From the NCBI GenBank assembly GCA_037481815.1, contig JBBFKX010000001.1:544001-608000 (forward strand): a stretch of DNA of 64,000 bases, in the 5' to 3' direction. A program made the translations under genes and the position numbers. Numbering within the stretch: position 1 is the stretch's first letter; every line of letters starts with the position of its first letter. The DNA is from a candidate division WOR-3 bacterium (GTDB taxonomy: Bacteria > Hydrothermota > 32-111). The notes under the pieces are model-generated. The model searched no databases. It was not told the origin of the DNA and worked only from the letters and a program-made list of their open reading frames with translations. Positions 1-40,368 of this stretch are shown here, piece by piece.

Positions 1-51
1 GAAGAGGATCTTAAGCAGAAAAATATCGGTTTTAACAAAAACAACGGTTGA
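1..51 (+). CDS. possible 3' end of a CDS entering from the left edge (EEDLKQKNIGFNKNNG*)
   Basis: Frame +1 is open from base 1 to TGA at 49-51 and converges on comEC; too short to identify. Confidence 0.3.
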   Translation, partial: EEDLKQKNIGFNKNNG

Positions 52-1381
52 TTTTTAAAATCACATAAAGAAAAATTATTGAAGAAAAAATGAATGAGGA
101 TTTATACTTTTTGTAAAACAATGTGATTAAACTCAACTCCCAGAAAACAAAGATAAAAAGGTCAATCTGAAATTCATACATCAAAAACATTTTCTCAGAA
201 CAAGATACAACCTTTTCAATAAACTTAAAAATATAAATAACGGGGTATTCAAGAAAACCAAATAATGGCAAAAGTGAAATTAAAGATAAAGGTATAAAAA
301 ATGAAAAAGGAAGATAGAGCACTGTTGTGAAAATAGGTGACCCAATAGATATATATTTAAACTGATACATCATATAAGGTGTAGTCAAAATTAAAACCAC
401 AAAAGAAGTTAATAAAATTTTTAAAAGTCCTCCTTTTAGGTTTAAAACTTCGTTTGAAATATAGATACCATAAACAGCAAGGAAGGATAGAGAAAACCCA
501 TTATCTTTAAAATTACTATCGTTGAACACCAGCATAAAAATCAATGTTAAAAAAATTAAACTCTCTTTATCAACCCTTTTCTCCAGTAATTCTCCAAGAA
601 GAAAAATGGTTATAAAAATAACAGATCTCACGACTGGTGGATTATTGTATGTCAAAAAAGAGTAAAAGATAAGAACAAGTATCGATATGATCACTTTTAT
701 TTTTTTCTTGATCGGTAAAAAATAAAGGAGAAAAAAAAGAAAAGAATAAATTATCAAAACATGTTGACCACTTATGGCCAGAAGATGGATAACTCCAGAA
801 TTTATGAAATCTTTTTTCAAATGTGAATCGAGATCCTTTCGATAACCAAAGATAACTGAATTTATAAAACCTGAAATCTTAGTATCAAAATATTTTTCTT
901 TTACTCTGTTAACGAGAATCGTTCTTAATCTTTCAACCGACTTTTCACTTTTAACAGAATCTATCTGTAAAATTGTAGATTTAAAAAAAACATCATAAGT
1001 TTCAAGAAATTTTTCATCATCATTTTTAAAATCTATCTTTTCAATTTTGAATTTTCCATATATATTATCACCTTCAAGAAAATTCAGATCACTATTTAAA
1101 AAAATTTTCATACCTTCACTATCGGTTATATAACCGTATTTGAACCCTCTCTTCACAGAAAGTTCGAGTTCATAAAAACCTTCATTCAAATTAATATTTT
1201 CTTTTAAACCTAAAATATGACCTGATAAAAAAACTATCAACAACGATAATGAAAATAAAAATTTTTTTAGGGATAAAGTATAAAATATTAAAAATAATAC
1301 AGGAATGATCAAAAAATTGTTTGTGTTATAGAAATAACCAAAATATATCGAAAATATGTATAGAAAAAAATAGAAAGTCAT
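32..1381 (-). CDS. comEC: ComEC/Rec2 family competence membrane protein, short form without metallo-beta-lactamase domain
   Basis: Many TM segments; SGVIHLLAISGQH and PPVVRS motifs, GFSLSFLA; ATG at 1381 overlaps upstream TGA (TGATG). Confidence 0.88.
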   Translation of the reverse strand: MTFYFFLYIFSIYFGYFYNTNNFLIIPVLFLIFYTLSLKKFLFSLSLLIVFLSGHILGLKENINLNEGFYELELSVKRGFKYGYITDSEGMKIFLNSDLNFLEGDNIYGKFKIEKIDFKNDDEKFLETYDVFFKSTILQIDSVKSEKSVERLRTILVNRVKEKYFDTKISGFINSVIFGYRKDLDSHLKKDFINSGVIHLLAISGQHVLIIYSFLFFLLYFLPIKKKIKVIISILVLIFYSFLTYNNPPVVRSVIFITIFLLGELLEKRVDKESLIFLTLIFMLVFNDSNFKDNGFSLSFLAVYGIYISNEVLNLKGGLLKILLTSFVVLILTTPYMMYQFKYISIGSPIFTTVLYLPFSFFIPLSLISLLPLFGFLEYPVIYIFKFIEKVVSCSEKMFLMYEFQIDLFIFVFWELSLITLFYKKYKSSFIFSSIIFLYVILKINRCFC

Positions 1382-1746
1382 CAACTATAAAGAACAGGTG
1401 AGAGCTCTCCTGCAAGTCTTTTGATCTCATATCTTGCAAGCCCAACATTCTGTTCTTTTCCAGTTAAAGCGTAATAGATATAGTAATCCTTCCCTATCAT
1501 TCCTGTAACAATCGTCATTTTCCCAGTAATGAGTATTATTTCAGCCATCTCACCAGCACCTATCTCCTTCGAGATTTTTTCTGCTGTGATCGCAAGTGTT
1601 GCGAGCTCTGCATCGGCAAGAGATAGATCCGCCTGAGGATATTTCGTATAGGAAGCAAGCGCTATACCATCAGTCCCAACAAGTGAAACAGCTACACATC
1701 CAGTTATCTTTTCTCCACTATCTTTTAGAATCGAATCAAAATCCAT
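1381..1746 (-). CDS. Roadblock/LC7 (MglB-like) domain protein
   Basis: ~121 aa; AVSLVGTDGIALA and NVGLARYEIKR patterns; GGGAGG SD; TGATG overlap with upstream gene. Confidence 0.8.
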   Translation of the reverse strand: MDFDSILKDSGEKITGCVAVSLVGTDGIALASYTKYPQADLSLADAELATLAITAEKISKEIGAGEMAEIILITGKMTIVTGMIGKDYYIYYALTGKEQNVGLARYEIKRLAGELSPVLYS

Positions 1747-2408
1747 CACTTCCTCCCTAAAATTATATCGAGTAAACTTCTCTTCTTTTTAAAATATTTT
1801 TGTTTTATAAGAAAAGCCCTTTTACTTTTAGGGTTTAAGTTCAAAGCCAATTTAAAAAGTTCTTTCGCCTTTTCATCTTTACCCATTTCAAAATATGCTT
1901 CAACAAGATTTAAAATTATTTCCTGATCGGAAAAATTGGAAGAAGTCAAAGAACTGTCCATAAATTCTATGCCTTTCTTTTTATCGACTCCCGAAAAGAA
2001 TAAAGAATAACCATAAAGAGAAAAGAATTCATCAGATGGTTTCTTGTTTTTGTACTTATAATGCATTTCCAGCTTTTTAAATAGATCGATTGCTTCCTTG
2101 AATTTTTTTTCTTTAATTTTCTTTTTCGCTTTCAGATAATAATTTTCAAACTTTTCATCATTTTTCTTTTCCTCTAAATTTATCCCCTCTTTAAATTTTT
2201 TCAGTTTTTCATCATACTCTTCTCTTTTTTTATCATCAGACAGAACATCGTATGCTTCTGCGATATCTGCAAATATGTTCTCATCTTTGTTTCCCTCCTG
2301 AGCAAGTTTGTCAGGATGATATTTTTTTGCAAGAGCAAAATAAGCCTTCTTTATATCGGCTTTTGAAGCATTCTCAGGAACATTTAAAATTTCATAATAA
2401 TTTTTCAT
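1746..2408 (-). CDS. J-domain protein with C-terminal TPR-like repeats
   Basis: NYYEILNV...IKKAY...KYHPDK...EAYDVLSD J-domain with HPD; TPR-like [26 protein letters not shown]. Confidence 0.85.
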
Positions 2409-2415
2409 AAAAAAT

Positions 2416-2443
2416 ATTATATTGTTAAGAATTTTTAAGTCAA
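2416..2443 (-). promoter_or_regulatory. sigma70-type promoter for the dnaJ-roadblock-comEC operon
   Basis: TTGACT-16 nt-TATAAT on minus strand, then 7 nt to the ATG at 2408; no SD. Confidence 0.65.
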
Positions 2444-2450
2444 CAAAATG

Positions 2451-4517
2451 TTAAAAAATACCTAACTCGGTTTTGACCTTTGTGAGTTTTTCTTTCGGTA
2501 TCTCTTTGAATTGCAAAAACTCCATATTGAAAACACCTCTTCCCTGAGTTAAGGTTCTTAAATCGTTCATGTAACCGAACATTTCGGAAAGAGGAACTTC
2601 ACAATCTATCGTTGTCATTCCATTCCCTTTTGAAATACCTTTTATCGTAGCATATCTTGAATTTATATCGTTGATAACAACTCCGACAAACTCATCCGGA
2701 ACAAATATATCCACCTTCATTATCGGTTCAAGGAGATAGTTTGGAACCTTTTTTAAAGCATCTTTGAATGCCATTGAAGCTGCGAAATTAAACGATTGCT
2801 CGTTTGATGAATTGATATCATATTTTGCTTCAACAAGAATTACCTTTATGTTCACCACAGGAAATCCAGCTATTATTCCGCTTGAACTTGTTGATTTTAC
2901 TCCATCCTCAACAGCTTTGATGAATTCAAGAGGTAAGATGTCTTTAGAAACTCTTGATTCAAATGAGAAATAATCTTTTTCATTTTTCTCAATCAGTAAT
3001 TTAACATAGGCGAAAACTGTTTTCTGCCCTATAACCTTGTTTAACTCGTATTCACCTTCTGTTCTATCCTTTATCGTTTCACGATAGGTGACTATGGGTT
3101 TTCCGACTCTTGGATCCACATTGTATTCTCTTTTCAACCTATCAACAACTATTTCAAGATGTAATTCTCCCATTCCTGAGATCAACAGTTGTCCTGTATC
3201 TTTATTCATAAATACTTTGAATGTTGGATCCATTTCCTGCATATTCTTCAACGCTTCATTCAGTTTTTCTTCTTCATCCTTTCTTCTCGGTTCAACTGAA
3301 ATTGAAACTACAGGTTCAGGAAAGATCGGCTTTTCTAGTGCAATAGGATGTTTTGGATCTGATAGAGTTGATCCAGTGATTGAACTTTTCAATCCAACCA
3401 CACCGCAGATATCGCCAGCTTCACATTTTTCAACTTCTATCCTCTTATTGGAATGTATCATAAAGATCTTTGTGATCCTCACTTTCTCGTTAAAAGTTGT
3501 ATCCAGCACCTGATCTTTCAATTCAAGTTTTCCGGAATATACTCTCATATACCCAAGTTTCCCAAAATGCTTATCTATTTCAATTTTATATATTAAACCA
3601 CAGAATGGGTTTTTTTTGTCAAGATGTCTTAAAATCTCCTCTCCTGTTTTCGGGTTGATCCCTGCGATTGGAGGTCTGTCAAGAGGAGAAGGTAAAAAAT
3701 AACATATCGCATCGAGTAACATATGAACACATTTGTTCTTTTTAGAAGAACCTGCAAAAACCGGAACTATCTTACAACTTATTACTCCTTTTCTGATAGA
3801 ATTGATGATCTCTTGTTCAGTTATGTTTTTACCATCAACAACTTTTTCAAGAATCTCATTATCAAAGTTAGCCAACCTTTCTATCAACAATTCTCTTTCA
3901 TTTTGACTTTTTTCTTTCAAATCGGCAGGTATTTCTGTCACGATATATTTATGTTCATCAAGTGGGTCATTGTATAAATAAGCTTTCATTTCGATCAGAT
4001 CAACAACACCTACAAATTCTTCTTCTTTACCAATCGGGATCTGTAGTGGTAATATTTCTGAAGAAAACTTTTCTTTCATACTTTCAACAACTCTATAAAA
4101 ATCAGCACCACTTCTATCCATTTTGTTTATGTACGAGATCCTTGGAACATTATATCTATCAGCCTGTCTCCAGACAGTTTCAGATTGCGGTTCAACACCT
4201 TCAACACCACTGAAAATAACAAGAGCACCATCGAGAACTCTTAAAGACCTTTCAACTTCTGCAGTAAAATCGATGTGCCCTGGAGTATCTATGATATTTA
4301 TCCTGTAATCTTTCCAGTTAACAGATGTAACTGCGGATGTTATAGTTATTCCTCTCTCTTTTTCCTGTTCCATCCAATCCATCGTTGCAGTTGCATCATC
4401 AACTTCCCCAATCCTATGTATTTTACCTGTATAAAAAAGAATCCTTTCGGTAGTTGTTGTTTTACCTGCATCTATATGGGCTATGATTCCAATGTTTCTT
4501 ATAATGTTCTGTTCCAT
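2451..4517 (-). CDS. fusA: Elongation factor G family GTPase with divergent domain IV
   Basis: [23 protein letters not shown] and GMGELHLE motifs; follows rpsL-rpsG; likely ATG at 4517 (ORF track extends to a TTG at 4553). Confidence 0.93.
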
Positions 4518-4519
4518 AT

Positions 4520-4550
4520 AAAAAAAAAGCCCATTGTTGAATGGGCTTTT
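4520..4550 (-). terminator. intrinsic terminator after rpsG, directly before fusA
   Basis: Minus strand AAAA-GCCCATT-CAAC-AATGGGC-T9. Confidence 0.8.
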
Positions 4551-4565
4551 CAAAAATATAAAAAA

Positions 4566-5039
4566 TTAAAATCTGAAATGAGCGTAGGCCTTGTTCGCTT
4601 CTGCCATTCTATGAGTATCTTCACGTTTCTTCAAAGCTGCACTGTTCTCTTTCTTATAGCATGCTAAAAGTTCATTCGCCAGTTTTTCCGCCATGGAATG
4701 ATCGTTTCTTGCATGAGCAGCTTCAAGAATCCATCTTATCGCAAGAGCAAGTTTTCTTTCCGGTTTAACTTCCATCGGAACCTGATATGTGGCTCCACCG
4801 ATCCTTTTCGGTCTAACTTCGACAACAGGTTTAACGTTGTTTAAAGCTTTTTCAAAAACCTGATAACCATCTTCTCCTGTTTTTTTTGCAAGGATTTCTA
4901 AAGCATCATAAAAAATTTTAAGTGCTACAGATTTTTTTCCTTTTTTCATAATATTGTTGATGAATTTACCCGCAGTTAAACTCTTGTATCTTGGATCAGC
5001 ATACTCTCTCTTTGGCAGAACTCTAATTCTTCTTGGCAT
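4566..5039 (-). CDS. rpsG: 30S ribosomal protein S7
   Basis: MPRR...RIGGATYQVP...MAEANKAYAHFRF. Confidence 0.98.
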   Translation of the reverse strand: MPRRIRVLPKREYADPRYKSLTAGKFINNIMKKGKKSVALKIFYDALEILAKKTGEDGYQVFEKALNNVKPVVEVRPKRIGGATYQVPMEVKPERKLALAIRWILEAAHARNDHSMAEKLANELLACYKKENSAALKKREDTHRMAEANKAYAHFRF

Positions 5040-5054
5040 ATTTTAAAACCCCCT

Positions 5055-5435
5055 TTATGTTGTTTGTTTTGGTTTTTTTGCACCGTAAAGGGACCTTGAT
5101 CTTCTTCTATTTTCAACTCCAGCGGAATCGTAAACACCTCTTATAACATGGTATCTTACTCCAGGAAGATCTTTAACCCTTCCACCTCTTATCAAAACAA
5201 CAGAGTGTTCTTGAAGATTGTGACCTTCACCGGGAATATATGCTGTGACCTCATACCCATTTGATAATCTAACTCTTGCAACCTTTCTTAAAGCTGAGTT
5301 TGGTTTCTTAGGTTTGGTTGTGTAAACTCTTACACATATCCCTCTTTTCTGAGGTGCCGCTTTCAAAGCCGGTGATTTTGTCTTTTTGGTTACCTTTTTC
5401 CTTTTACTTCTTACAAGTTGATTAATTGTTGGCAT
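5055..5435 (-). CDS. rpsL: 30S ribosomal protein S12
   Basis: [31 protein letters not shown]. Confidence 0.99.
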
Positions 5436-5440
5436 ACAAT

Positions 5441-8400
5441 TTACTCCTCCGTTACAGATGTTTGTTGATAAAGTTCATTATCTGTAGAAATTTCTTCTAT
5501 ATCCTCTTCTTCAATTTTTCTAAATTTCCTGAAACCGGTTCCAGCAGGTAACAGGTTTCCAATTATAACATTCTCTTTTAAACCATTTAAATAATCTATG
5601 CTACCATTTATTGCTGCGTCTGTCAATACTCTTGTTGTTTCCTGGAAAGATGCAGCCGATATGAATGACTTCGCGTTCAAGGATGCTTTTGTGATACCCA
5701 TCAACAATCTTGTGTAAAGAGCAGGTCTTTCTCCCCTTTCTCTTACCCTTTCATTCTCAAGATCTACATCTTTCTTTTCAACTATTTCCCCCTGAATAAA
5801 ATCTGTTTCACCGGGATCGGTAATTTTCACATATTTTATCATCTGTCTGATAATAACTGAAATATGTTTGTTATCGATGTTAACTCCCTGTGCTCTGTAA
5901 ACTTCCTGTATCTGGTTCATCAAAAAGTTCGCAACATCACCGATATCTTTGATTCTCATCAGATCATGTGGATCAACAGATCCATCGCAGAGTTTATCAC
6001 CCGCTTTAACCTCTTCACCTTCATAAACGAGAATATGTTTACCTCTTGGAATCCTGTACTCTTTTTTACTTCCATTCGGTGTTATAACATAAACTATCTG
6101 CTCTCCTGTTCCCTTCTTTGTTTCTCCAATTTCAACTACTCCATCAACTTCTGAGATCACCGCTTTCTCTTTTGGTACCCTCGCATCAAACAGTTCTGTC
6201 ACTCTTGGAAGTCCACCGGTTATATCACTCGCTGTTGCCTTTGCTTTAGGAGTTTTCAATATTATAGTCCCGGGCTCAACTTTCATTCCATTTTTGACCA
6301 TTATGTATGAACCGACTTTCACCGAAACGCTTCTCAAAACATTGTTATTTGCTTTATCTATTATTTCAACTCGAGGATTCAAACTTTTATCCTTTGTTCC
6401 AATTACAACAAAGATCTCATCGTTACCAATTATTTCACTTCTAACATTGTACTCTTCTTTAATATCTTTAAATCTTACGATTCCAGAATAGTTCGCAAGT
6501 TCCACCGTTGAATAAGGATCCCTTGTGAAAAGTTCAGTATCCTTTGTTACCATCTGTCCATCTTTGACAAGAATATGTGAGGCAGGTGGAACACTAAGAT
6601 CGTATTTAACCTTGTTGTTTTCATCAAGTATCTGTATCTTTGCATCCTTACCAGCACTTATATCTTCACCTCTTTCATTTTTCAAAATCTTCAGATGAAC
6701 AAATTTTACTTTTCCTTCCTCTTTCGCTTTTATTGAGGTTTCTTCAGCCAATCCTCCAGCAGTTCCACCGATATGGAAGGTTTTCAATGTTAACTGTGTT
6801 CCCGGCTCTCCAATCGATTGTGCAGCCATGACTCCCACCGCTTCGCCGATCTCAACCAATCTTCCTGTTGCAAGATTTCTTCCATAACATTTCTGACAGA
6901 GTCCATGTTTCGCTTCACATGTTAGAACTGATCTTATCTTTATCTTTTCTATTCCTTCTTCGTCCAATCTTAATGCCTTTTCATGAGTGATCTCTTCATT
7001 CTCATGAACGATTATTCCCTTTTCAATATCCTTTCCATAAACATCTTCAAGTGAGAATCTTCCTTCAACAAGTTCGCTCAACTTTTTAACAACACCTTTT
7101 TCTCTTATAGGTGTTACCTCAATACCGAGTATCGTTCCACAGTCCTCTTCTGTGATAATAACATCCTGTGCAACATCGACAAGTTTCCTTGTGAGATAAC
7201 CTGCTTCAGCGGTCTTTAACGCTGTATCGGTTAAACCTTTTCTTGAACCGTGTGTTGAAATAAAGTATTCAACAACCTGTAATCCTTCTTTGAAGTTTGA
7301 TTTCACCGGAGTTTCAATAACCTCTTCACCGGTTAATTTTTTTTGTGGTCTCTGCATCAAACCTCTTATACCGATCAACTGTCTGACCTGTTCTATATTT
7401 CCTCTCGCTCCCGAACCAACGATCATATGTATCGGATTGAAACCATTTTTATCCTCTTTTAACCTTTTTTCAACGATCTTCTGAATGTCATCTGTTGCTT
7501 TTAACCAGGCACTCTTTACCCTTTCATATCTTTCCTTTTCAGTTGTTGTTCCACCTTTACTGTGTTCTTTGTTTATCCTATCAACCTCTCTCTGTGTTCT
7601 TTCGATTATCTCGTCCTTTTCTTTTGGAACGATCATATCATCGATTCCAAAAGTCAAACCTGAGATCGTTGAGAAATAGAATCCTTTTTCCTTTATGTTG
7701 TCAAGAAGTTCTATCATTTCCCTGTTGGAAACATTCCAGAAAGCGTTGTAAAGAAGTTGTTGTAATTTCTTCTTATCGACTGTGTCGTTTATAAATCTTA
7801 ACTTCTCAGGTAAAAAACTGTTAAATATTATTCTACCAACAGTGGTTTCCAATATCTGGTTTTTGTACACAAATTTCACAGGAGTATGAATTTTCAAAAT
7901 TTTATTTTCATAAAGATAGTATGCTTCATCAAAACTATCAAGAATCTTTTCCCCAACTTCTTTTTTCAATTCATCCTTTTTAGCAGTAAGATAGTACATC
8001 CCCACAACCATATCGTGTGTAGGAGTTACAATTGGACCACCATGCGCTGGTGACAAAAGATTGTTTGCAGAAAGCATTAAAAGTTGTGCTTCAATTCTTG
8101 CTTCATACGAAAGTGGAATATGAACAGCCATCTGATCACCATCGAAATCAGCGTTGAACGCGGTACAAACGAGAGGATGCAATCTTATCGCTTTACCTTC
8201 GATCAAGACCGGCTGGAACGCCTGAATGCCCAATCTGTGTAAAGTTGGGGCTCTGTTGAGAAGAACAGGATGATCTTCGATTATCTCTTCGAGAATTTTC
8301 CAGACCTCTTTTGATTCTGCATCTATGATCTTTTTAGCATTTTTTATTCCACTTGCTATTTTCCTTTCCTCAAGTTTTTGTATTATAAATGGCTTGAAAA

Positions 8401-9535
8401 GTTCAAGAGCCATCTCTTTTGGAAGTCCACATTGATAGATTTTCAATTCAGGGCCAACAACGATAACACTTCTTCCGGAATAGTCGACTCTCTTTCCTAA
8501 AAGATTCTGTCTGAATCTACCATTCTTACCTTTTAATGAATCTGTCAGAGATTTTAACGCTCTGTTTCCTCTACCTTTTATCGGTTTTCCTCTCTTTGTG
8601 TTATCTAAAAGTGCATCAACAGCTTCCTGTAACATCCTTTTTTCATTTTTCAAAATTATATCTGGAGCATTCGTCTGGATAAGATTTTTCAATCTATTGT
8701 TTCTTGAGATCACTCTTCTGTAAAGATCGTTAAGATCACTTGTCGCGAACCTTCCACCATCGAGAGCTACAAGGGGTCTCAGATCTGGTGGAATAACAGG
8801 TAATCTGAAAAGGATCATCCATTCTGGTTTATTTCCGGATTTTCTGAACGCTTCAACGAGTCGCAACCTTTTCAAAATCTTTTTCTTTTTATCTGAACTA
8901 TCACTTCCACTCTCGTTCCTTACCTGCATTCTCAACTCTAAAGAAAGTTCATCAAGATTTAAATCTTTCAAAAGTTCGTAAATCGCTTCAGCACCCATCA
9001 ACGCTTTAAAAGTATCTCCATACTCATCCAGAAGTTGCTGATATTTTTCTTCTGTTATCACATCACCTTTTGCAAGTCCAGTTTTTCCGGGATCTATTAT
9101 AGCATAAGCATTATAGTAAAGGATCTTTTCGAGATCCTGAGTTTTCATATTTAAAAGAATACCTATTCTACATGGAGTTGACTTATAAAACCATACATGC
9201 GCTATTGGAACAGCAAGTTCAATATGTCCCATCCTTTCCCTTCTGACTTTAGATAAGGTTACTTCAACTCCGCATCTTTCACAAACGATACCTCTATATC
9301 TTACATGTTTATATTTACCACAGTTACACTCATAGTCCTTTACAGGTCCAAATATCCTCTCACAGAAAAGCCCATCTCTTTCCGGTTTTTGAGTTCTATA
9401 ATTTATGGTTTCAGCTTTTAAAACTTCACCACTTGAAAGTTGTAGAATTTTTTCAGGTGATAAAAGTTTTAACTGTATATAATCAAAATCTATAGGTCTG
9501 AGGATTTTTTTCTGTTTGATTTTATCTTCAGCCAT
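5441..9535 (-). CDS. rpoC: RNA polymerase beta' subunit
   Basis: [11 protein letters not shown] catalytic motif, Zn fingers, SI3-type insertion in the trigger loop. Confidence 0.99.
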
Positions 9536-9548
9536 TTTTTTCTCCTTT

Positions 9549-12500
9549 TTATTCTAAAGGTTCTTTTCTCTCGTTACGTTCGTTTTTCAGATCTTCCTCT
9601 TTTCCTAAAATAACATCAAGACACAATCCGTTCATCTCTTTTACAAGGACATTGAACGCTGCAGGTAGTCCTGGTTCTGGTGGATTTTTTCCTTTTACTA
9701 TGGATTCGTATAGATCGGTTCTTCCTTTGACATCATCTGATTTGACTGTCAACATCTCTTGTAGTGTGTATGCGGCTCCATATGCTTCAAGAGCCCACAC
9801 CTCCATTTCACCGAACCTCTGACCTCCAAACTGTGCTTTTCCTCCAAGGGGTTGCTGGCTGATTAACGAATAAGGACCAGTAGCTCTTGCATGTATTTTA
9901 TCTTCAACCATATGAGAAAGTTTCAACATGTACATGTTTCCAACCGTAACGGGCTCATCAAACGGCTCACCTGTTTTTCCATCATACAAAACCATTTTTC
10001 CAGTTGGATTTCCAACCTCACTTAAAAGTTTTTTTATTTCATCGATTGTTGCACCTTCAAAAACGGGTGAGGAATATTTTTCACCTTTTTTGTATCCTAC
10101 ATAACCGAGTAAAGTTTCAAGCACCTGTCCGATATTCATTCTGCTTGACACTCCAAGTGGATTTAAAACTATATCTATCGGTGTTCCATCAGCCATGTAT
10201 GGCATATCTTCAACAGGCACTATTTTGGCTATCACACCCTTGTTACCATGTCTTCCTGCAAGTTTATCCCCAACCTGTATGTTTCTTTTCTGTGCGATAA
10301 ACACTTTGACAACCTTTAAAACACCGTTTGGTAACTCATCCCCATGTAATTGATCTATCGAGTCCTCTCCGATCCTATTTTTTATTTTGTTTATTGCATT
10401 ACTTGCATCCCTAATTATTTTGTTAACTTTTTTATAATCATCAGGTAGAACTTCCTTATCGAATATTATCTTTGAGAAATCAAGTTTTTTGATCATCTCA
10501 GGAGTTATTCTGGTACCTTTTCTAACAACAACTTTACCATAAATATCTTTTAAAGATTCATTCAATTTTTTATCAACGAGAAGTTCTTTTAAGTACTCAT
10601 TTCTTTTCTTTATAATTCTTTTAATCTTTTCTTCAACTTCTTTTATCAGTTGTTTTTCAACCATCTCTTTCTTTTTGCTTTCTCTTGAAAGAACTCTAAC
10701 ATCAACGACAACTCCACTGATTCCTGGTGGAACTTTGAGTGAAGTGTCTCTAACATCACTCGCCTTTTCTCCAAATATCGCTCTTAAAAGTTTTTCTTCG
10801 GGAGTGAGTTCAATTTCTCCTTTTGGAGTAACTTTACCGACAAGGATATCTCCAGGTTGTACTTTTGAACCTATCATTATTATTCCATTGGCATCAAGGT
10901 TTGCAACAGCATCTTCGCTTACACTTGGAAGTTCTCTTGTGAACTCTTCTGGTCCAAGTTTTGTTTCCCTTAAAACGATTTCAAGTTCTTTTATGTGTAT
11001 CGAAGTGAAAGCATCTTCGGTTAACAACCTTTCAGAAACAACAATGGCATCCTCAAAATTGTAACCATACCATGGCAAAAACGCTACAAGAACATTCTGT
11101 CCCAAAGCGAGTTCGCCTTTCTCACATGAATGTCCATCAGCGAGTATATCTCCCGCCTTTACTTTCTGACCAACATTTACAAGTGGTCTTTGAATTATCG
11201 TTGTGTCCTGGTTGGTTCTTTCAAAATTTTTCAACCTGTATATATCATATCCAGCTTCCTCATCGAAAATATTTTCTGTTGTTCTGTTATCAAGTTTAAT
11301 TTTTATATAGTCAGCGGTTACCTCTTCAACAACCCCATCATTTTTTGCTATAACTAAAGCACCGGAATCGATCGCAATCTGTTTTTCAACTCCAGTTCCC
11401 ACTATCGGTGAAGATGGTTTCAACAAAGGAACCGCCTGTCTTTGCATGTTTGATCCCATCAACGCTCTGTTCGCATCATCATGCTCTAAAAATGGTATGA
11501 GCGATGTTGAAGGACTTACTATCTGTTTTGGAGAAACATCTATATAGTCAACCTCTTCAGCCGGTACAAGAGGATACTCACCTTTTTTTCTACAAAGAAC
11601 CATTTTGTTTTTAAATGTCCCGTCTTCATTCAAAGGTGAGTTCGCCTGTGCTATAAAATATTTATCTTCTTGATCAGCTGTTAAATATTCAACGGTGTTC
11701 GTTACTTTACCTTTTACAACCTTTCTATAAGGTGTCTCAATAAATCCATACTCATTGATTCTTGCATAAGTTGAAAGTGAAGTGATAAGTCCTATGTTCT
11801 GCCCTTCAGGTGTTTCGATAGGACAGATTCTACCATAATGTGAATGGTGGACATCACGAACCTCAAATCCAGCAGTTTCTCTTGTTAAACCACCTGGACC
11901 TAACGCTGAGATCCTTCTTTTATGTGTCAGTTCAGCAAGTGGGTTTGTTTGTTCCAAGAATTGTGATAACTGACTTGTTGAGAAGAATGAAAGAATCGTT
12001 GAAGATACAAGTCTTGCATTTATAAGTTCTTTTGGTGTAACCTGTTCCTTCATCATCATTCTTTCCCTGATATTTTTAGCCATCTTTGCAAATGCCTGTT
12101 CGAATTGGTTTTCGAGTAGTTCCCCAACCCTTCTTATCCTTCTACTTCCAAGATGATCTATATCATCAAATTCAAACTGGTTTTTCTGATCAACAGCATA
12201 AAGTAATTTTTTGATCGAATGTATCAGATCCTCTTTTGTAAGAGCAAAATTGTTGGGATCAATTTTATGTTCCAATTTTTCATTCAATTTCAATCTTCCA
12301 ACTTTTCCTAGTTCATACCTTTCAACAGTAAAAAATGCTGCTTCAAAAAATTTCTGTGCGATTTCCGTTGTCGCTGGATTTGTACCTTTTAGATAAAAGA
12401 AGATTTTTTCAAGGGCATCTTCCATTCCCGTTGTTGGATCCTTTTTAAGAGTATTCAAAACAACGTTTAACGCTGTTTCATTTTCAGTTTTTACAACTTT

Positions 12501-13346
12501 TATTTTGGAAATTTCTCTATCAAGTAACGAATTCAGAACTGCTGGAGTGATAACGGTTCCAGCTTCAAAAAGAACTTCACCCGTTTTCTTATCGATTATA
12601 TTTGAAAACAAAATTTTCGAATTGAATTCCTGCCCAAAATTTTTTACATCTTTTTCTGTAAAAGACAATTCTTCTTTTGAAAATAATAGACCAAAAATCT
12701 TTTCAACACTATCATAACCAAACGCTTTTAAAAGAATCGTCGCAGGAAACTTTTTCTTTCGATCAAGGTTTGCATACATTATCTCATTTGTATCAACATT
12801 GAATTCAAGCCAGGACCCTTTGTTTGGTAATATCTGCGCTGTATAATAATATTTCCCACCCTCCATCTCATCCATGGTAAAAAATATTCCAGGTGATCTA
12901 TGAATCTGACTCACAACGACCCTTTCAATACCGTTTATCAAAAAAGTGCCGTTTTCTCCCATCAATGGAATACTACACAAAAATACATCCTGTTCGATAA
13001 CATCCTTAATGGTTCCGGTTGGTTCACCGGTTTTTTCGTTGAAGTTTTTATATATCATTTTCAATGTAACTTTCAAAGGTGCAGCATATGTTAACCCTTT
13101 ATATTTGCATTCTTCAAAAGAATATATCGGTTCTTCGAGTTCATATTTTACAAAATCCAAACTGAACCTTGAATTCGTATCATCTATTGGGAACGCATCT
13201 TTAAGGACCTTTTGTAATCCCTGATACTTTCTCTTATCAGCAGGAACATCTGCCTGTAAAAATTGTTCAAAAGATTCCTTTTGTATCGTCAACAGATATG
13301 GTAATTTCACATTTGAATTAAACTTTGCAAAAGATATTCTTTTCAT
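9549..13346 (-). CDS. rpoB: RNA polymerase beta subunit
   Basis: [31 protein letters not shown]. Confidence 0.99.
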
Positions 13347-13351
13347 TTAAC

Positions 13352-13398
13352 CACAACTCCTTTTTTGTTGTGAAGGAGGGGTTAAAAACCCCCTCCTT
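13352..13398 (-). promoter_or_regulatory. tandem hairpins in the rplL-rpoB spacer (attenuator or processing-like)
   Basis: AAGGAGGGG/CCCCTCCTT 9-bp stem at 13373-13398; CACAAC/GTTGTG stem at 13352-13372 enclosing the rpoB SD. Confidence 0.5.
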
Positions 13399-13407
13399 TA
13401 AAAAGTT

Positions 13408-13788
13408 TTACTTCAACTCTACAACTGCTCCTGCCTGTTCAAGTTGTTCTTTTATCTTTTCAGCTTCCTCCATTGGAACATTTTTCTTTATCTCTTTTGG
13501 TGCAGCATCAACTATTTCTTTTGCCTCTTTGAGTTCTATGTTGAGAATCGCTTTAACAACCTTTATCACCTGGAGTTTCGATTGTCCTGCTGAATGTAAA
13601 ACTACTGTTGCTGTTGTTTTTTCAGCTTCTGCTGCCTGCTGTCCACCACCCTGTGCTACCTGAGCAACTGCAACTGGAGCTGCTGCTGTAACCCCAAATT
13701 TTTCCTTTAATGCTTCAACTAGTTCTGCAAGTTCAAGAACCGTCATCTTCTCGATCATCTCTATGATTTTTTCTTTATTTTCAGACAT
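13408..13788 (-). CDS. rplL: 50S ribosomal protein L7/L12
   Basis: [23 protein letters not shown] hinge, [10 protein letters not shown]. Confidence 0.98.
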
Positions 13789-13797
13789 TTTTCCTCC

Positions 13798-14337
13798 TTA
13801 CTGATTATTCTCTTTTTTTTGTTTGATAGCTTCAACCGTATAAACGAACTCACTGATGATGCCGTTTAGAGTCCAGACAAAATTGTAGATGGGTGCCTGG
13901 ATTGAACCGACAAGATTGGAAAGCAATTCCTCTTTTGATGGAATCTCCGCAAGTTTGTCAACCGCTTTTTGATCGAAAAATTTCCCATCAACAATTGCCA
14001 TCTTCGCTTTCGGATTTTTATATTTTTTGAAAAACTCTTTTATCGTCTTAGCAGGTGTGACTGGATCTCCATATGAGAAAGCAACAGATGTGTTTCCTTT
14101 TAGAGCAATATCGATGTTTTCCTGTGGGAAGACCTCTTTGAAAGCAAAATAGAGTGTACTGTTTTTTATCACTTTGTACTCTATTTTGTCTTTATCAAAA
14201 GTTCTTCTCAACTCGTTTACCTGTTCAACAGTCATACCTTTAAAATCCGAAAGATAGACCCCTTTTGCATCTTTCAGTTTTTGAGCAATCGTTTTTACGG
14301 TTTCCTTTTTGAGTTCTAATTTTTTAGGATTGCCCAT
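13798..14337 (-). CDS. rplJ: 50S ribosomal protein L10
   Basis: DFKGMTVEQVNELRR, LAEIPSKEELL; position between rplA and rplL. Confidence 0.96.
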   Translation of the reverse strand: MGNPKKLELKKETVKTIAQKLKDAKGVYLSDFKGMTVEQVNELRRTFDKDKIEYKVIKNSTLYFAFKEVFPQENIDIALKGNTSVAFSYGDPVTPAKTIKEFFKKYKNPKAKMAIVDGKFFDQKAVDKLAEIPSKEELLSNLVGSIQAPIYNFVWTLNGIISEFVYTVEAIKQKKENNQ

Positions 14338-14346
14338 TTTTACTCC

Positions 14347-15045
14347 TTACTTGATTGAATTTATTTCCCCTGTATCGAGAGGAACTCCTACACCCATGGT
14401 TGTCGACAATGTGACACTTTTGAAATAAGTGCCTTTGGCTGACTGAGGTTTTGCGCGTTTTATCTCAGTCAGGAGATGGATTATATTTTCTTTTAACTGT
14501 TCCTTACTGAAAGAAATTTTTCCAACGATCGTATGAAGGTTTGCATTTTTATCGATCTTATATTGAACTCTTCCCTTTTTTGCCTCAGTAACAACCTTTG
14601 AGATATCGTTTGTTACAGTTCCAACCTTTGGATTTGGCATTAAACCTTTTACTCCAAGGATCTTTCCAAGTTTTCCGATCTTTTTCATAAGATCTGGTGT
14701 TGAAATAACAAGATCAAAATCCATAAATCCGTTGGAAATTTTTTCGATGAGATCATCTTCTCCAACATAATCAGCTCCTGCTTCAACCGCTTCTTTTGCT
14801 TTATCTCCGTTAGCAAAAACAAGTACTTTAACTTTTTTGCCTGTTCCATGAGGAAGAGTTGTAGCACCTCTAACCATCTGATCCGATTTCTTTGGATCAA
14901 CCCCAAGAAGTATGGCAAGTTCAACAGTTTCATCAAATTTTGCTTTTTTACTGCTTTTCAAGATATCTATAGCTTCATCTATAGAATACCTTTTCGTTTT
15001 ATCAACAAGTTTTTTGTTTTCAATGACTCTCTTTCCTCTTTTCAT
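14347..15045 (-). CDS. rplA: 50S ribosomal protein L1
   Basis: AKFDETVE, LPHGTGK, GLMPNPKVGTVT. Confidence 0.98.
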   Translation of the reverse strand: MKRGKRVIENKKLVDKTKRYSIDEAIDILKSSKKAKFDETVELAILLGVDPKKSDQMVRGATTLPHGTGKKVKVLVFANGDKAKEAVEAGADYVGEDDLIEKISNGFMDFDLVISTPDLMKKIGKLGKILGVKGLMPNPKVGTVTNDISKVVTEAKKGRVQYKIDKNANLHTIVGKISFSKEQLKENIIHLLTEIKRAKPQSAKGTYFKSVTLSTTMGVGVPLDTGEINSIK

Positions 15046-15470
15046 CATTCCTCCACTGTGATGCCCATACTACGAGCTGTTCCTTTGATCATTTTTATTG
15101 CACCTTCAAGATCTTTCGCATTAAGATCTGGCATTTTCAACTCAGCAATTTTTTTCACATCCTCAAGTTTAACCTTTCCAACCTTCTGTTTGTTTGGAAC
15201 ACCTGAACCTTTTTCAAGTCCAGCCGCTTTCAAAAGAAGAACAGAAGCTGGAGGGGTCTTAGTGATAAATGTGAAAGATTTATCCTGATAAACAGTTACA
15301 ACAACTGGAATTATCAAACCTTTCTGCTTTTCTGTTTTTGCATTGAAATTTTTACAGAACTGCATCAGGTTTATTCCATGTTGTCCAAGTATAGGTCCAA
15401 CCGGTGGTGCTGGAGTTGCGGCTCCTCCGGGAACCTGTAATTTTACGATAGCAACTACTTTTTTTGCCAT
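15045..15470 (-). CDS. rplK: 50S ribosomal protein L11
   Basis: [23 protein letters not shown]. Confidence 0.99.
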
Positions 15471-15487
15471 TTATCTCCCCCTTGCTT

Positions 15488-16021
15488 TTATTTGCCTATC
15501 AATTCGGCCTGTGTGAATGATAGTTCAACAGGTGTTGATCTACCAAAAATTGTTACTGTTACCTTCATCTTTTCTTTATCCTTATCTATTTCTTCAACTA
15601 CACCATTAAAATCCCTAAAAGGACCCGAAATTATCTTCACATTATCACCTATTCTGAAAGGAATTTCGAGAACCTCTCTAACATTATCCTTGTTGTTCAA
15701 AAGTTCATCTATTTTTTTTGCATCCTCTGTTTTCAACTTTACAGGTTTCTTTCTTCCTGATATGAATGTTGTCTGTGCACATATCTGTGTTAAAAACTGG
15801 ATCATCTCTTTTGAATCCTCCATATGGATAAAAACATATCCAGGGAACAGATTTTTTTCAAGAACCACTTTTTTACTTTTTCTGATCCTGACAACATTTT
15901 CAACAGGTATGAAAATCTGATCAACTTTATCCTGAAGATCTTTTATTTTCAACTCTTCTTCAATCAACTTTTTCGCTCTTTTTTCATACCCAGTATAAAC
16001 TTGCAACATAAACCAATCCAT
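15488..16021 (-). CDS. nusG: transcription elongation factor NusG
   Basis: NLFPGYVFI, KOW domain GPFRDFNG, IFGRSTPVEL. Confidence 0.97.
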   Translation of the reverse strand: MDWFMLQVYTGYEKRAKKLIEEELKIKDLQDKVDQIFIPVENVVRIRKSKKVVLEKNLFPGYVFIHMEDSKEMIQFLTQICAQTTFISGRKKPVKLKTEDAKKIDELLNNKDNVREVLEIPFRIGDNVKIISGPFRDFNGVVEEIDKDKEKMKVTVTIFGRSTPVELSFTQAELIGK

Positions 16022-16023
16022 AA

Positions 16024-16215
16024 TTACCTCGTAAATAGACTAAAAATTTTCGAAATAAGAAGATCAAATCCTCCTACAACAAAACCTAAAACGATTGAAA
16101 CAACTATAACAACAAGTGTTGATCCCCAGAGAGATTTTGAATCAGGTAAAACAACCTTTTTCAACTCGATTTTAACTTCTCTGAGATACTCAATAAAATT
16201 TTTCCACCATTTCAT
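16024..16215 (-). CDS. secE: preprotein translocase SecE
   Basis: EVKIELKKVVLP plus one TM helix; directly upstream of nusG. Confidence 0.93.
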   Translation of the reverse strand: MKWWKNFIEYLREVKIELKKVVLPDSKSLWGSTLVVIVVSIVLGFVVGGFDLLISKIFSLFTR

Positions 16216-16231
16216 AAATTCTCCTTTTATT

Positions 16232-16305
16232 CAGGGCAGGAGGGACTCGAACCCCCAACATTCGGTTTTGGAGACCGACGCTCTACCAATTGGAGCTACT
16301 GCCCT
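16232..16305 (-). tRNA. tRNA-Trp (CCA)
   Basis: AGGGCAG acceptor stem, TCGGT-CTCCAAA-ACCGA anticodon arm, GGTTCGAGTCC T arm. Confidence 0.96.
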
Positions 16306-16311
16306 AAACAT

Positions 16312-16461
16312 TTATTTTGCCTCTTTATGAAGCGTATGTTTTCTACAAAATTTACAATACTTTTTTAGTTCAAGTTTATCTGTCTGTTTTTTCTTATTCT
16401 TTGTTGTCATATAGTTTTTTCTTTTACATTCTGAACAAACCATTGTTATTATCTCTCTCAT
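16312..16461 (-). CDS. rpmG: 50S ribosomal protein L33 (zinc-ribbon form); not in the ORF track
   Basis: Translated by hand: [49 protein letters not shown]. Confidence 0.97.
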
Positions 16462-16471
16462 CTTTTCCTCT

Positions 16472-17671
16472 TTATTCTAATATTTCAGTTACAACACCGG
16501 CACCAACAGTTCTTCCACCCTCTCTTATAGCAAACCTTAACTCCTTCTCCATCGCTATCGGTGTTATCAATTCAACTATAAACTCTGTGTTCTCCCCTGG
16601 CTTCACAAACTCCTGTCCAGGTGCCAACTCTATCGACCCTGTAACATCTGTAGTCCTGAAGAAAAATTGCGGCCTGTATCCACTCTTGAACGATGTACTC
16701 CTTCCACCTTCCTCTTTCGTCAACACATACACCTGACATTTAAACTTCTTGTGTGGTGTAACCGTCCCTGGCTTCGCCAACACCATACCCCTCTCTACTT
16801 CATCCTTATCTATACCCCTCAACAAAACTCCCACATTGTCCCCCGCCTCAGCATAATCCAGTATCTTCTTAAACATCTCCAACGATGTAGCCACCGTCTT
16901 CTTGTGTGCACCCAATCCTATTATCTCCACTTCATCTCCTGCCTTTATCTGCCCTCTCTCCACTCTTCCAGTAGCCACAGTACCCCTTCCAGTTATACTG
17001 AATACATCCTCTATACTCATCAAAAATGGCTTATCCTTCTCTCTCACTGGATCTGGAAAATAATTGTCCACCGCATCCATTAATTCCAATATACATTTAT
17101 ACTCAGGTGCATTTATGTCCTGACTAGTACTCTCCAACGCCTTCAACGCACTTCCCCTGATCACAGGTATCTCATCACCCGGAAACTTGTTCGCCTTCAA
17201 TGTGTCCCTTATGTCCATCTCCACTACATCCAATATCTCCGGATCATCCACCATATCAACCTTGTTCATAAACACTACTATACTCGGAACATTAACCTGC
17301 CTCGCCAACAATATATGCTCCCTCGTCTGGGGCATCGTTCCATCATTCGCACTCACCACCAATATAGCCCCATCCATCTGTGCAGCCCCCGTTATCATGT
17401 TCTTTATATAGTCAGCATGCCCAGGACAATCAACATGCGCATAATGCCTCTTATCCGTCTGGTACTCTATGTGTGCAACATTTATCGTTATACCCCTAGC
17501 CTTCTCCTCCGGTGCCTTATCTATCTGATCGTACGCTGTAAACTCAGCATACTTCTTCAAAGATAACACCTTCGTGATCGCAGCTGTCAACGTCGTCTTA
17601 CCATGATCCACATGCCCGATCGTCCCTATGTTCATATGAATCTTCGTCCTTTCAAATTTCTCCTTCGCCAT
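16472..17671 (-). CDS. tuf: Elongation factor Tu (tRNA-cluster copy, tufB-like)
   Basis: [21 protein letters not shown]. Confidence 0.99.
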
Positions 17672-17683
17672 TTAATCCTCCTT
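16472..17683 (-). repeat. ~1.2 kb direct repeat, copy 1 (tuf plus its RBS), matching 39169-40380
   Basis: Identical proteins; one synonymous difference seen by eye (16520 C vs 39217 T). Confidence 0.9.
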
Positions 17684-17688
17684 TTTTA

Positions 17689-17761
17689 AGCCCATGACCA
17701 GGATTGAACTGGTGACCTCATCCTTACCAAGGATGTGCTCTACCAACTGAGCTACATGGGC
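17689..17761 (-). tRNA. tRNA-Thr (GGT)
   Basis: GCCCATG acceptor stem; CATCC-TTGGTAA-GGATG anticodon arm. Confidence 0.96.
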
Positions 17762-17835
17762 ATGTTTTTAGTTTTTTTATCTATATAAAAAAAAACATTC
17801 CTCAAACAGTTCAACCCTTTTGAGGTTTTTAAAAG

Positions 17836-17908
17836 AGCGGGAGACGGGATTCGAACCCGCGACATTCTGCTTGGAAGGCAGAAGCTCTACCAACTGAGCT
17901 ACTCCCGC
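17836..17908 (-). tRNA. tRNA-Gly (TCC)
   Basis: GCGGGAG acceptor stem; TCTGC-CTTCCAA-GCAGA anticodon arm. Confidence 0.96.
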
Positions 17909-17918
17909 GATTTTAGTG

Positions 17919-18001
17919 TGGAGAGAGTAGGATTCGAACCTACGAAGACATCAGCCAGCAGATTTACAGTCTGCCCCCTTTGACCGCTCGGGAATCTCTC
18001 C
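17919..18001 (-). tRNA. tRNA-Tyr (GTA)
   Basis: GGAGAGA acceptor stem; GCAGA-CTGTAAA-TCTGC anticodon arm; long variable arm. Confidence 0.96.
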
Positions 18002-18005
18002 ACAT

Positions 18006-18077
18006 AGCTGGTGGAGGGATTTGAACCCCCGACCAGTGGTTTACAAAACCACTGCTCTACCCCTGAGCTACACCAGC
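18006..18077 (-). tRNA. tRNA-Thr (TGT)
   Basis: GCTGGTG acceptor stem; GTGGT-TTTGTAA-ACCAC anticodon arm. Confidence 0.95.
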
Positions 18078-18096
18078 AAGCTGTCTTGAATTTTTT

Positions 18097-18124
18097 AGTA
18101 TATATTTTTTTTTAAATTTGTCAA
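18097..18124 (-). promoter_or_regulatory. sigma70-type promoter of the tRNA-tuf operon
   Basis: TTGACA-16 nt-TATACT about 20 nt upstream of tRNA-Thr; the -35 overlaps the upstream TGA. Confidence 0.75.
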
Positions 18125-39168: not shown

Positions 39169-40368
39169 TTATTCTAATATTTCAGTTACAACACCGGCAC
39201 CAACAGTTCTTCCACCTTCTCTTATAGCAAACCTTAACTCCTTCTCCATCGCTATCGGTGTTATCAATTCAACTATAAACTCTGTGTTCTCCCCTGGCTT
39301 CACAAACTCCTGTCCAGGTGCCAACTCTATCGACCCTGTAACATCTGTAGTCCTGAAGAAAAATTGCGGCCTGTATCCACTCTTGAACGATGTACTCCTT
39401 CCACCTTCCTCTTTCGTCAACACATACACCTGACATTTAAACTTCTTGTGTGGTGTAACCGTCCCTGGCTTCGCCAACACCATACCCCTCTCTACTTCAT
39501 CCTTATCTATACCCCTCAACAAAACTCCCACATTGTCCCCCGCCTCAGCATAATCCAGTATCTTCTTAAACATCTCCAACGATGTAGCCACCGTCTTCTT
39601 GTGTGCACCCAATCCTATTATCTCCACTTCATCTCCTGCCTTTATCTGCCCTCTCTCCACTCTTCCAGTAGCCACAGTACCCCTTCCAGTTATACTGAAT
39701 ACATCCTCTATACTCATCAAAAATGGCTTATCCTTCTCTCTCACTGGATCTGGAAAATAATTGTCCACCGCATCCATTAATTCCAATATACATTTATACT
39801 CAGGTGCATTTATGTCCTGACTAGTACTCTCCAACGCCTTCAACGCACTTCCCCTGATCACAGGTATCTCATCACCCGGAAACTTGTTCGCCTTCAATGT
39901 GTCCCTTATGTCCATCTCCACTACATCCAATATCTCCGGATCATCCACCATATCAACCTTGTTCATAAACACTACTATACTCGGAACATTAACCTGCCTC
40001 GCCAACAATATATGCTCCCTCGTCTGGGGCATCGTTCCATCATTCGCACTCACCACCAATATAGCCCCATCCATCTGTGCAGCCCCCGTTATCATGTTCT
40101 TTATATAGTCAGCATGCCCAGGACAATCAACATGCGCATAATGCCTCTTATCCGTCTGGTACTCTATGTGTGCAACATTTATCGTTATACCCCTAGCCTT
40201 CTCCTCCGGTGCCTTATCTATCTGATCGTACGCTGTAAACTCAGCATACTTCTTCAAAGATAACACCTTCGTGATCGCAGCTGTCAACGTCGTCTTACCA
40301 TGATCCACATGCCCGATCGTCCCTATGTTCATATGAATCTTCGTCCTTTCAAATTTCTCCTTCGCCAT
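39169..40368 (-). CDS. tuf: Elongation factor Tu (copy heading the S10 operon)
   Basis: Protein identical to 16472-17671. Confidence 0.99.

Follow-up and report, generated by a model that had tools for sequence, protein, structure and literature searches.

A str-operon EF-G I without its translocation tip, and an EFG II-type paralogue that may translocate in its place, in candidate division WOR-3

The two loops at the tip of domain IV of elongation factor G (EF-G) hold the codon-anticodon helix during translocation. In the 64,000-nucleotide stretch of a candidate division WOR-3 genome analysed here (assembly GCA_037481815.1, contig JBBFKX010000001.1, positions 544,001 to 608,000; hereafter the window), the fusA gene of the str operon encodes an EF-G in which both of these loops have been replaced. 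What does such a protein do on the ribosome, and which factor moves the transfer and messenger RNAs? The same genome holds a second EF-G gene with intact loops, and EF-G's two essential jobs seem to be divided between the copies in a manner not described before. In the reading that we favour, the tip-less EF-G I (copy 1) would recycle ribosomes in a GTP-dependent reaction with the help of ribosome recycling factor (RRF), and the EFG II-type paralogue (copy 2) would translocate. We infer these roles from sequence comparisons and give them a probability of about one half.

Copy 1 (P0001) scores 863.2 bits against the EF-G equivalog model TIGR00484, well above the cut-off of 659.4, and comprises the five EF-G domains (Pfam GTP_EFTU, EF-G_D2, EFG_III, EFG_IV and EFG_C). 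As expected of an EF-G I, it sits in a contiguous rpsL-rpsG-fusA array (tuf does not follow), and the motifs G1 to G5 of its G domain are canonical, with the P-loop, RGITI, DTPGH and NKMD all intact. The GTPase motifs and the catalytic His are unchanged in all 14 genomes of its family, f1, which spans five genera and includes the window's genome. The conserved tip of EF-G I, comprising the GG pair, Gln507 and His583 in E. coli numbering, reads G-Q, Val and Asp instead. Both loops align with canonical EF-Gs without gaps by MAFFT and have thus been replaced without insertions or deletions, their lengths kept. Reading the E. coli numbering (from PMC4666400 and PMC7749637) across this alignment, Q507 corresponds to V495, S508 to I496, G509 to G497, G510 to Q498, Y514 to F502, H583 to D567, D586 to S570, S587 to S571, S588 to N572 and E589 to E573. 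Niblett et al. 2021 (PMC7749637) list seven E. coli residues that touch the codon-anticodon duplex, Q507, S/T508, G509, G510, Y514, H583 and D586; in P0001 one of the seven is kept, the equivalent of G509, and the other six are altered, Y514 to Phe. The sequence-only reading of this locus had described replaced loops (at residues 489-505 and 563-576, both inside positions 2720-3090) beneath a canonical G domain, and our analysis bears this out. Its loop II reading had the loss of the His right (H583 = Asp567); the gap-free alignment puts its register off by one, which leaves the conclusion in place.

We compared the 14 family sequences with a reference set of 130 canonical EF-Gs, 28 from WOR-3 and 102 from other phyla. 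The second Gly of loop I is present in 100% of the reference set and is Gln in every family member; the loop II His is present in 98% and is Asp in every family member. With canonical residues conserved at 98-100% and replaced in 14 of 14, the change in the family is not chance. Sixteen sites are conserved within each group with differing residues, four of them in domain IV, and the consensus identity of this domain to canonical EF-G, 0.44, is the lowest of the five (0.51-0.69 in the rest). The new loop motifs are themselves conserved across all 14 genomes.

A tip lost in this way could belong to a decaying gene heading for loss. Copy 1 has evolved two to six times faster than its paralogue in the window's genus, and a terminator is present ahead of it where a Shine-Dalgarno sequence is absent. 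Against decay, its frame is open in all 14 genomes, its G-domain motifs are invariant, and five genera still carry it, at identities as low as 59%. The ratio of nonsynonymous to synonymous substitution rates (dN/dS) in nine family pairs is 0.032-0.077, indicating purifying selection, and on these selection data we rejected a pseudogene reading; decay is very improbable. Copy 2, in nine family pairs, is likewise under purifying selection, with a dN/dS of 0.010-0.040.

Copy 2 lies at C3:152239-154314 (L002:1480-3555) and encodes P0002, a protein of 691 amino acids (aa) that is 33% identical to P0001. It is the one other full-length EF-G-type gene in the window's genome (G000; 1.58 Mb in 20 contigs, 95% complete), where the remaining matches comprise TypA and LepA, identified on checking, a pair of 399-aa EF-Tu genes and one 911-aa open reading frame (ORF). 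A second EF-G with intact loops had been predicted from the window alone, and P0002 answers to that prediction; that it would be of EFG II type was unforeseen. P0002 keeps both tip loops, with the GG pair and a Y-H-D-V-D-S-S stretch, and has a His-Lys-Lys stretch ahead of the GG pair; the tip is extra-basic. Its P-loop reads GHNGAGKTS, followed by RSITI and by DTPGF, where Phe takes the place of the catalytic His. The top family model is NF009381 (867.5 bits), and this subfamily model, the GHxxxGKT P-loop, a relaxed G2 and the Lys-rich loop I place it with EFG II, whose reported traits are a relaxed G2, a Lys-rich loop I and conserved G4 and G5 (Margus et al. 2011, PMC3150367). When P0002 is taken together with 120 homologues, Tyr occupies the position of the catalytic His in 89 sequences and Phe in 31, one fragment not covering it, and the GG pair and loop II His are kept in 121 of 121. 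The P-loop, the Tyr or Phe (120/120 aligned homologues) and the Lys-rich loop are shared with the EFG II proteins (EF-G2) of T. thermophilus, M. smegmatis and Bacteroides thetaiotaomicron. Copy 2 occurs in 13 of the 14 f1 genomes, its loop I identical across five genera but for one Val/Leu position, and most of 151 genomes of the phylum hold two or more EF-G matches. Caldithrix abyssi, too, is listed with a canonical EF-G and a protein of the copy 2 type. The switch I of P0002 shows no insertion in the alignment, so the KDG insertion of spdEFG1 is absent, and the window's genome does not show the pattern of an spdEFG1 partner in a genome that lacks EFG I.

We propose that copy 1 would no longer be the cell's translocase and would be kept for the GTP-dependent splitting of post-termination ribosomes with RRF, which is present in 19 of 19 genomes of the class. 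It retains the whole GTPase and the five domains, both tip loops having been swapped for family-specific conserved sequences. Translocation would fall to copy 2, encoded on contig C3, with its intact, extra-basic tip and Phe at the catalytic His position. Work in E. coli is partly in keeping with such a separation. Polysome breakdown is reported to persist when loop I is deleted and in every point mutant of that loop, and most single substitutions in loop II leave the RRF-dependent reaction intact (Zhang et al. 2015, PMC4666400). H583K, S588P and E589A are reported to lose translocation and to be toxic (PMC4666400), and slowed translocation, -1 frameshifting and dominant lethality are described for single substitutions at the contact residues (PMC7749637; PMC4666400).

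Where did the tip-less copy come from? Protein database searches returned 17 clusters at 59-94% identity (P0003-P0019), all with diverged loops, the nearest relatives carrying candidate division WOR-3 source names. A further 29 aligned sequences, at 55% identity or less, have a canonical tip in 28 cases. The exception, P0101, an EF-G from candidate division KSB1, has Asp at the loop II His position and keeps the GG pair; judging from it, tip erosion may occur outside WOR-3 too. In a scan of the 151 phylum genomes, matches of 59-96% identity occur in all 14 genomes of f1, each with diverged loops and with rpsG adjoining upstream, and other families reach at most 52%. Our trees were quick LG+G4 searches whose rows held no named spdEFG1/2 or mtEFG sequences, for which bit scores against PDB chains stand in. 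P0001 scores 713-715 bits (best 714.7) against the bacterial EF-G chains 4m1k_A and 1dar_A, which we take to be Thermus EF-G, 491 bits against mitochondrial EF-G1, 443.8 bits against mitochondrial ribosome-releasing factor 2 (RRF2/EF-G2, 7l20_w) and 366 bits against the EF-G homologue 1wdt. In a 90-row IQ-TREE tree, the f1 copies form a clade (SH-aLRT 100, stem 0.45) within the WOR-3 EF-G I group. This nesting, with the bit scores, indicates that copy 1 is an EF-G I that diverged in place, with an origin independent of spdEFG2 and mtEFG2, as the sequence-only reading had suspected. Membership of either of those groups was rejected on the same grounds (443.8 against 714.7 bits, and the nesting).

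Loss of the tip is not confined to f1. We took a census of 83 WOR-3 EF-G I-type sequences, the 14 of f1 and 69 from other families (one to three genomes each, picked non-randomly); it left out L136, whose longest ORF is in the wrong frame, and L093, a 90-nucleotide (nt) filler region, was unused. The GG pair or the His is lost in 35 of the 83 genes. Besides those of f1, the 21 tip-less genes belong to f7, f8, f9, f10, f12, f18, f20, f22, f23, f25, f26, f29, f30, f33, f34 and f35. Their replacement sequences vary among lineages, and several have loop II deletions of one or two residues. With the tip columns left out of the alignment, a 94-row tree calls for eight changes of state, at least four of them forced by branches with SH-aLRT of at least 95; f1 is again a clade of its own, and its sister family f2 has a canonical tip. 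Among tip-altered copies for which upstream DNA was taken, 10 of 17 lie behind rpsL-rpsG; for one of the other seven, no more than 242 nt of such DNA was available. Where genomes of f22 and f30 have three copies, the additional canonical ones group in a basal clade of their own, and none of three stands behind rpsG. Of the comparative arguments for a paralogue that takes over the tip-dependent function, the strongest is this repeated, non-homologous erosion of the tip beside a near-universal paralogue with an intact one.

Extra canonical EF-G I genes outside the str operon were observed in f12, f22, f27, f30 and part of f5 (L134, L143, L144, L147, L149, L081 and L082). In the tree they fall outside the main clade of WOR-3 EF-G I, and they may be horizontal acquisitions.

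The spread of the altered tips also bears on whether copy 1 might still be the main translocase, its remodelled tip making other contacts with tRNA and mRNA, and the EFG II paralogue serving, like its counterparts in other bacteria, as an accessory or stress factor. The str-operon location, the canonical GTPase, the strong purifying selection and the retention of the new loop motifs in all 14 genomes would suit this, as would the f1 genome that shows no paralogue (G044) and the accessory nature of the EFG II proteins studied so far. Some tip mutants, Q507H and H583R, are moreover reported to lose at most twofold in rate in vitro (PMC7749637). In copy 1, however, six of seven contact residues are altered together, and the paralogue, whose conservation across the phylum equals or exceeds that of copy 1, has the stronger expression signals. 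The unrelated replacement tips among WOR-3 lineages, some with loop II deletions, look like a release from constraint and not like one new solution. We consider a translocating copy 1 unlikely.

The expression signals of the two genes differ. An intrinsic-terminator-like hairpin separates rpsG from fusA and is the best minus-strand site of its kind in window positions 1-18500; a hairpin with a run of eight or nine T residues occurs at this place in all 14 f1 loci, with compensatory stem changes between genera. No Shine-Dalgarno sequence was seen ahead of copy 1 in the window or in any of the 14 family loci, and fusA is one of nine among 38 window genes checked that have no GGAG-type motif within 25 nt upstream (present in the other 29). 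Copy 2 of the window's genome follows a promoter-like TTGACA-16-TATTAT (11 of 12 positions) and an AAGGAGG ahead of its TTG start. The Shine-Dalgarno sequence AAGGAGGA stands in all 13 family loci, 12 of which also have a -35/-10-like pair, all of these promoter and Shine-Dalgarno calls being consensus matches. A codon index derived from the ribosomal-protein genes puts copy 1 at the 33rd percentile and copy 2 at the 79th, but it puts tuf itself at the 0.5th and so says little about expression. In the proposed scheme, the terminator and the missing Shine-Dalgarno sequence would hold the level of copy 1 low, which would limit its competition with the translocase on pre-translocation ribosomes. 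The gap between rpsG and fusA is 0-24 nt and without a hairpin in f2, f6, f7 and f12, and long and structured in f4 and f32.

Two side observations concern these signals. Strong hairpins with T-rich runs lie between rpsG and fusA in two families unrelated to each other, in L171 (G129, f33, tip-less) and in L027 (G052, f21, intact). TTG is the start codon of all 13 copy 2 genes of the family (L040-L052), each preceded by a perfect AAGGAGGA, whereas TTG, GTG or ATG serves in other families; a conserved weak start codon on a strong Shine-Dalgarno sequence may be regulatory.

Signals of low expression ahead of copy 1 would also be compatible with a role of another kind, that of a new ribosome-associated GTPase that uses the new conserved tip and, for example, rescues or splits stalled or hibernating ribosomes, or clears a ligand out of the decoding centre as Tet(M) and Tet(O) do, with the paralogue both translocating and recycling. 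The replaced loops are conserved within f1 and not random, and Tet proteins are described as EF-G relatives whose domain IV loops are 'differentially conserved'. The best family model for copy 1 is nonetheless EF-G, and a score of 442.7 bits against tet_protect, whose cut-off is 775, led us to reject membership of the Tet(M)/Tet(O) group. Tip sequences, moreover, differ widely among the tip-less WOR-3 lineages. The EF-G2 of M. smegmatis is reported to be unable to recycle, with a domain IV incompatible with RRF, and to be a stress factor (preprint 10.64898/2026.05.25.727771); since the paralogue is of the same EFG II type, it is no obvious candidate for both jobs. A new function for copy 1 is, in our judgement, improbable.

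Mitochondria, spirochaetes and their relatives, and Pseudomonas are known to divide EF-G's two jobs between separate proteins; in each of these, to our knowledge, the translocase is a normal GTPase. Like copy 1, the recycling-only paralogues mtEFG2 (EF-G2mt/RRF2mt) and spdEFG2 (Borrelia burgdorferi EF-G2) keep the GTPase, have an altered loop I and work beside a separate translocase. The second Gly position is substituted in both EF-G2mt and copy 1, by Asp and Gln, respectively, whereas Borrelia EF-G2 has Ala for the first Gly; a clash with bridge B2a is reported for loop 1 of EF-G2mt (Koripella et al. 2021, PMC8203779). These systems differ from copy 1 in that one or a few residues have changed, whereas copy 1 has both loops replaced, lies in the str operon and belongs to the EF-G I lineage; their partners are mtEFG1 and spdEFG1, whereas that of copy 1 is EFG II-type (NF009381). 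The sequence-only reading had called the loops degenerate in mtEF-G2 and spdEFG2, which overstates the change: by the account in PMC8203779, one Gly of loop I and its neighbours are substituted, and the two loops are not both lost.

The Pseudomonas pair offers a closer functional likeness. The str-operon EF-G1A of P. aeruginosa is reported to be 75-fold weaker in poly(Phe) synthesis than EF-G1B, encoded outside the str operon, and to act with RRF (Palmer et al. 2013, PMC3832671), so that there too the str-operon copy is the weak translocase and the copy elsewhere translocates. Both Pseudomonas proteins are EFG I, 84% identical and with no tip loss reported in that account, whereas the WOR-3 pair is 33% identical and its split is visible in the sequence, with the tip lost in copy 1 and the catalytic His in copy 2. 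As for EFG II, Thermus EF-G2 is summarised as having GTPase and translocation activity (10.64898/2026.05.25.727771). The organisms in which EFG II has been studied also have a fully competent EF-G I, whereas the EF-G I resident beside it in f1 is tip-less. We found no description in the literature of a tip-less EF-G I paired with an EFG II, and none of WOR-3 elongation factor G.

Several lines of evidence weigh against the division that we propose, and the first concerns the second loop. Loop II deletions and S588P are reported to abolish recycling in E. coli (PMC4666400), and the S588 equivalent in f1 copy 1 is Asn or Asp. On this point, too, the background given with the sequence-only reading, in which the loops are needed for tRNA translocation, goes too far: deletions in loop II abolish recycling, although most single substitutions there do not. 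Conserved new loops would also fit a new function. The partner raises doubts of its own, as the EFG II members studied are described as weak, slow or inactive translocases (10.64898/2026.05.25.727771; PMC3832671): T. thermophilus EF-G2 has low poly(Phe) activity, Bacteroides EF-G2 translocates slowly, as cited in preprint 10.64898/2026.05.25.727771, and in the same preprint M. smegmatis EF-G2, with Tyr for the catalytic His, does not recycle and the H88Y mutant of M. smegmatis EF-G1 nearly loses its GTPase. G044, an f1 genome 96% complete in 210 contigs, shows no copy 2 at E values up to 1e-5, and its congener G049 does have it. Nor is the terminator a rule. A terminator-like hairpin also precedes the intact-tip fusA of G052 (f21, L027), and no clear one was seen in nine of the 10 other tip-less lineages examined in str context, nor any in f7 or f12; we therefore rejected it as a general partner of tip loss and regard it as a trait of f1.

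Evolutionary rates do not set f1 apart either. The median ratio of copy 1 to copy 2 maximum-likelihood distances is 1.31 in f1, as against 1.34, 1.45 and 1.10 in the intact-tip families f5, f31 and f2, in which the dN/dS of the two copies is also alike, and a rate reversal specific to f1 was rejected. Copy 1 is the faster, by 1.5- to 6-fold, only within genera g1 and g2. Across the phylum EF-G I is no better conserved than the EFG II-type copy, which is opposite to the 'high evolutionary speed' that has been described for EFG II (PMC3150367).

The nucleotide pocket of copy 2 is the remaining difficulty. P0002 has lost the Asp of the G4 motif NKxD (it reads NKMK, and G5 reads T-D-S), and so departs from the conserved G4 NKxD and G5 SAx reported for EFG II (PMC3150367). 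Among 39 WOR-3 copy 2 sequences, 38 carry Lys, Thr, Arg or another residue instead of the G4 Asp and have gained an Asp in G5. In the set of 121, all 56 sequences without Asp or Glu at G4 carry the G5 Asp, and 50 of the 51 with the G4 Asp carry Ser, Ala or Cys at the G5 position; relatives from Calditrichota and Zixibacteria retain NKLD. The pattern suggests that the specificity Asp was relocated from G4 to G5, perhaps with altered nucleotide use, and the pocket looks remodelled and not decayed.

The value of one half given at the outset for a recycling EF-G I and a translocating EFG II reflects a partner whose GTPase site looks crippled, the importance of loop II for recycling in E. coli and the f1 genome without a partner. 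A stronger form can be put forward tentatively: in f1 and in about half of the WOR-3 families sampled, all translocation might be carried out by an EFG II-type factor without the catalytic His and with its Asp moved from G4 to G5. Elongation would then run constitutively with little or no GTP hydrolysis by EF-G, or with some other catalytic arrangement, and the ancestral EF-G I would be only a GTP-burning splitter. That would overturn the view of EFG I as indispensable and as irreplaceable by EFG II. We regard this form as possible and would not lean on it.

Features of the fusA locus, in window coordinates, are collected in the table.

Table. Copy 1, its domain IV loops and its neighbours in the window
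Feature	Position	Strand	Detail
DnaJ-domain/TPR protein, immediately downstream of fusA	1746..2408	-	Pfam DnaJ 78.8 bits, plus TPR
fusA copy 1, str-operon EF-G I orthologue	2451..4517	-	688 aa, P0001; ORF and translation, TIGR00484, Pfam
Domain IV (Pfam EFG_IV), residues 474-590	2748..3098	-	81 bits, against 149.5 in paralogue P0002
Loop II stretch, residues 563-576	2790..2831	-	H583 equivalent is Asp567; D586 equivalent is Ser570; S587 equivalent kept
Loop I stretch, residues 489-505	3003..3053	-	second Gly of GG pair is Gln498 (G497-Q498); Gln507 equivalent is Val495
Switch II DTPGH, catalytic His81 kept	4275..4289	-	identical in 14/14 family genomes
P-loop AHIDAGKTT	4455..4481	-	alignment
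Intrinsic-terminator-like hairpin (12 pairs) and T9 run	4520..4551	-	ends 3 nt before the fusA ATG
rpsG (S7), immediately upstream of fusA	4566..5039	-	adjoins fusA in 14/14 family loci
rpsL (S12)	5055..5435	-	str-operon neighbour

The ORF of copy 1 extends upstream to 4553, and we prefer the ATG at 4517 as the probable start because the extension is out of frame in relatives, whose intergenic distance is 36-55 nt; a TTG-initiated extension would fall within the rpsG-fusA intergenic hairpin. The order of genes along the minus strand is tuf, tRNA-Trp, secE/nusG, rplKAJL, rpoB, rpoC (5441-9535), rpsL, rpsG and fusA. Downstream of fusA, where tuf would be expected and where the sister family f2 does have it, lie (1381-2408 and 32-1384, minus strand) the DnaJ/TPR protein, a weakly Roadblock/LC7-like protein of 122 aa and a large membrane protein; the first two are kept in six of six loci of the window's genus, the window's own counted. 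The window also holds two tuf genes on the minus strand, at 16472-17671 and 39169-40368, 22.7 kb apart and identical at 1199 of 1200 nt. They cease to match beyond 12 nt on the upstream side and 0 nt on the downstream side, a pattern suggestive of gene conversion limited to the coding region.

In the window's genome, a translocation tip is found on copy 2 alone, which has no catalytic His, and a full GTPase in copy 1 alone, which has no tip; within this one phylum, loss of the tip has recurred many times. For annotation, the label 'elongation factor G' in WOR-3 would appear to cover two functionally different proteins. Should the proposed division be true, it would contradict the published view of EFG I as 'indispensable', with a str copy that 'remains stable' (PMC3150367). 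It would also make WOR-3 a natural system in which to ask whether translocation can be sustained in vivo only if EF-G hydrolyses GTP, and what role the enigmatic EFG II subfamily plays.

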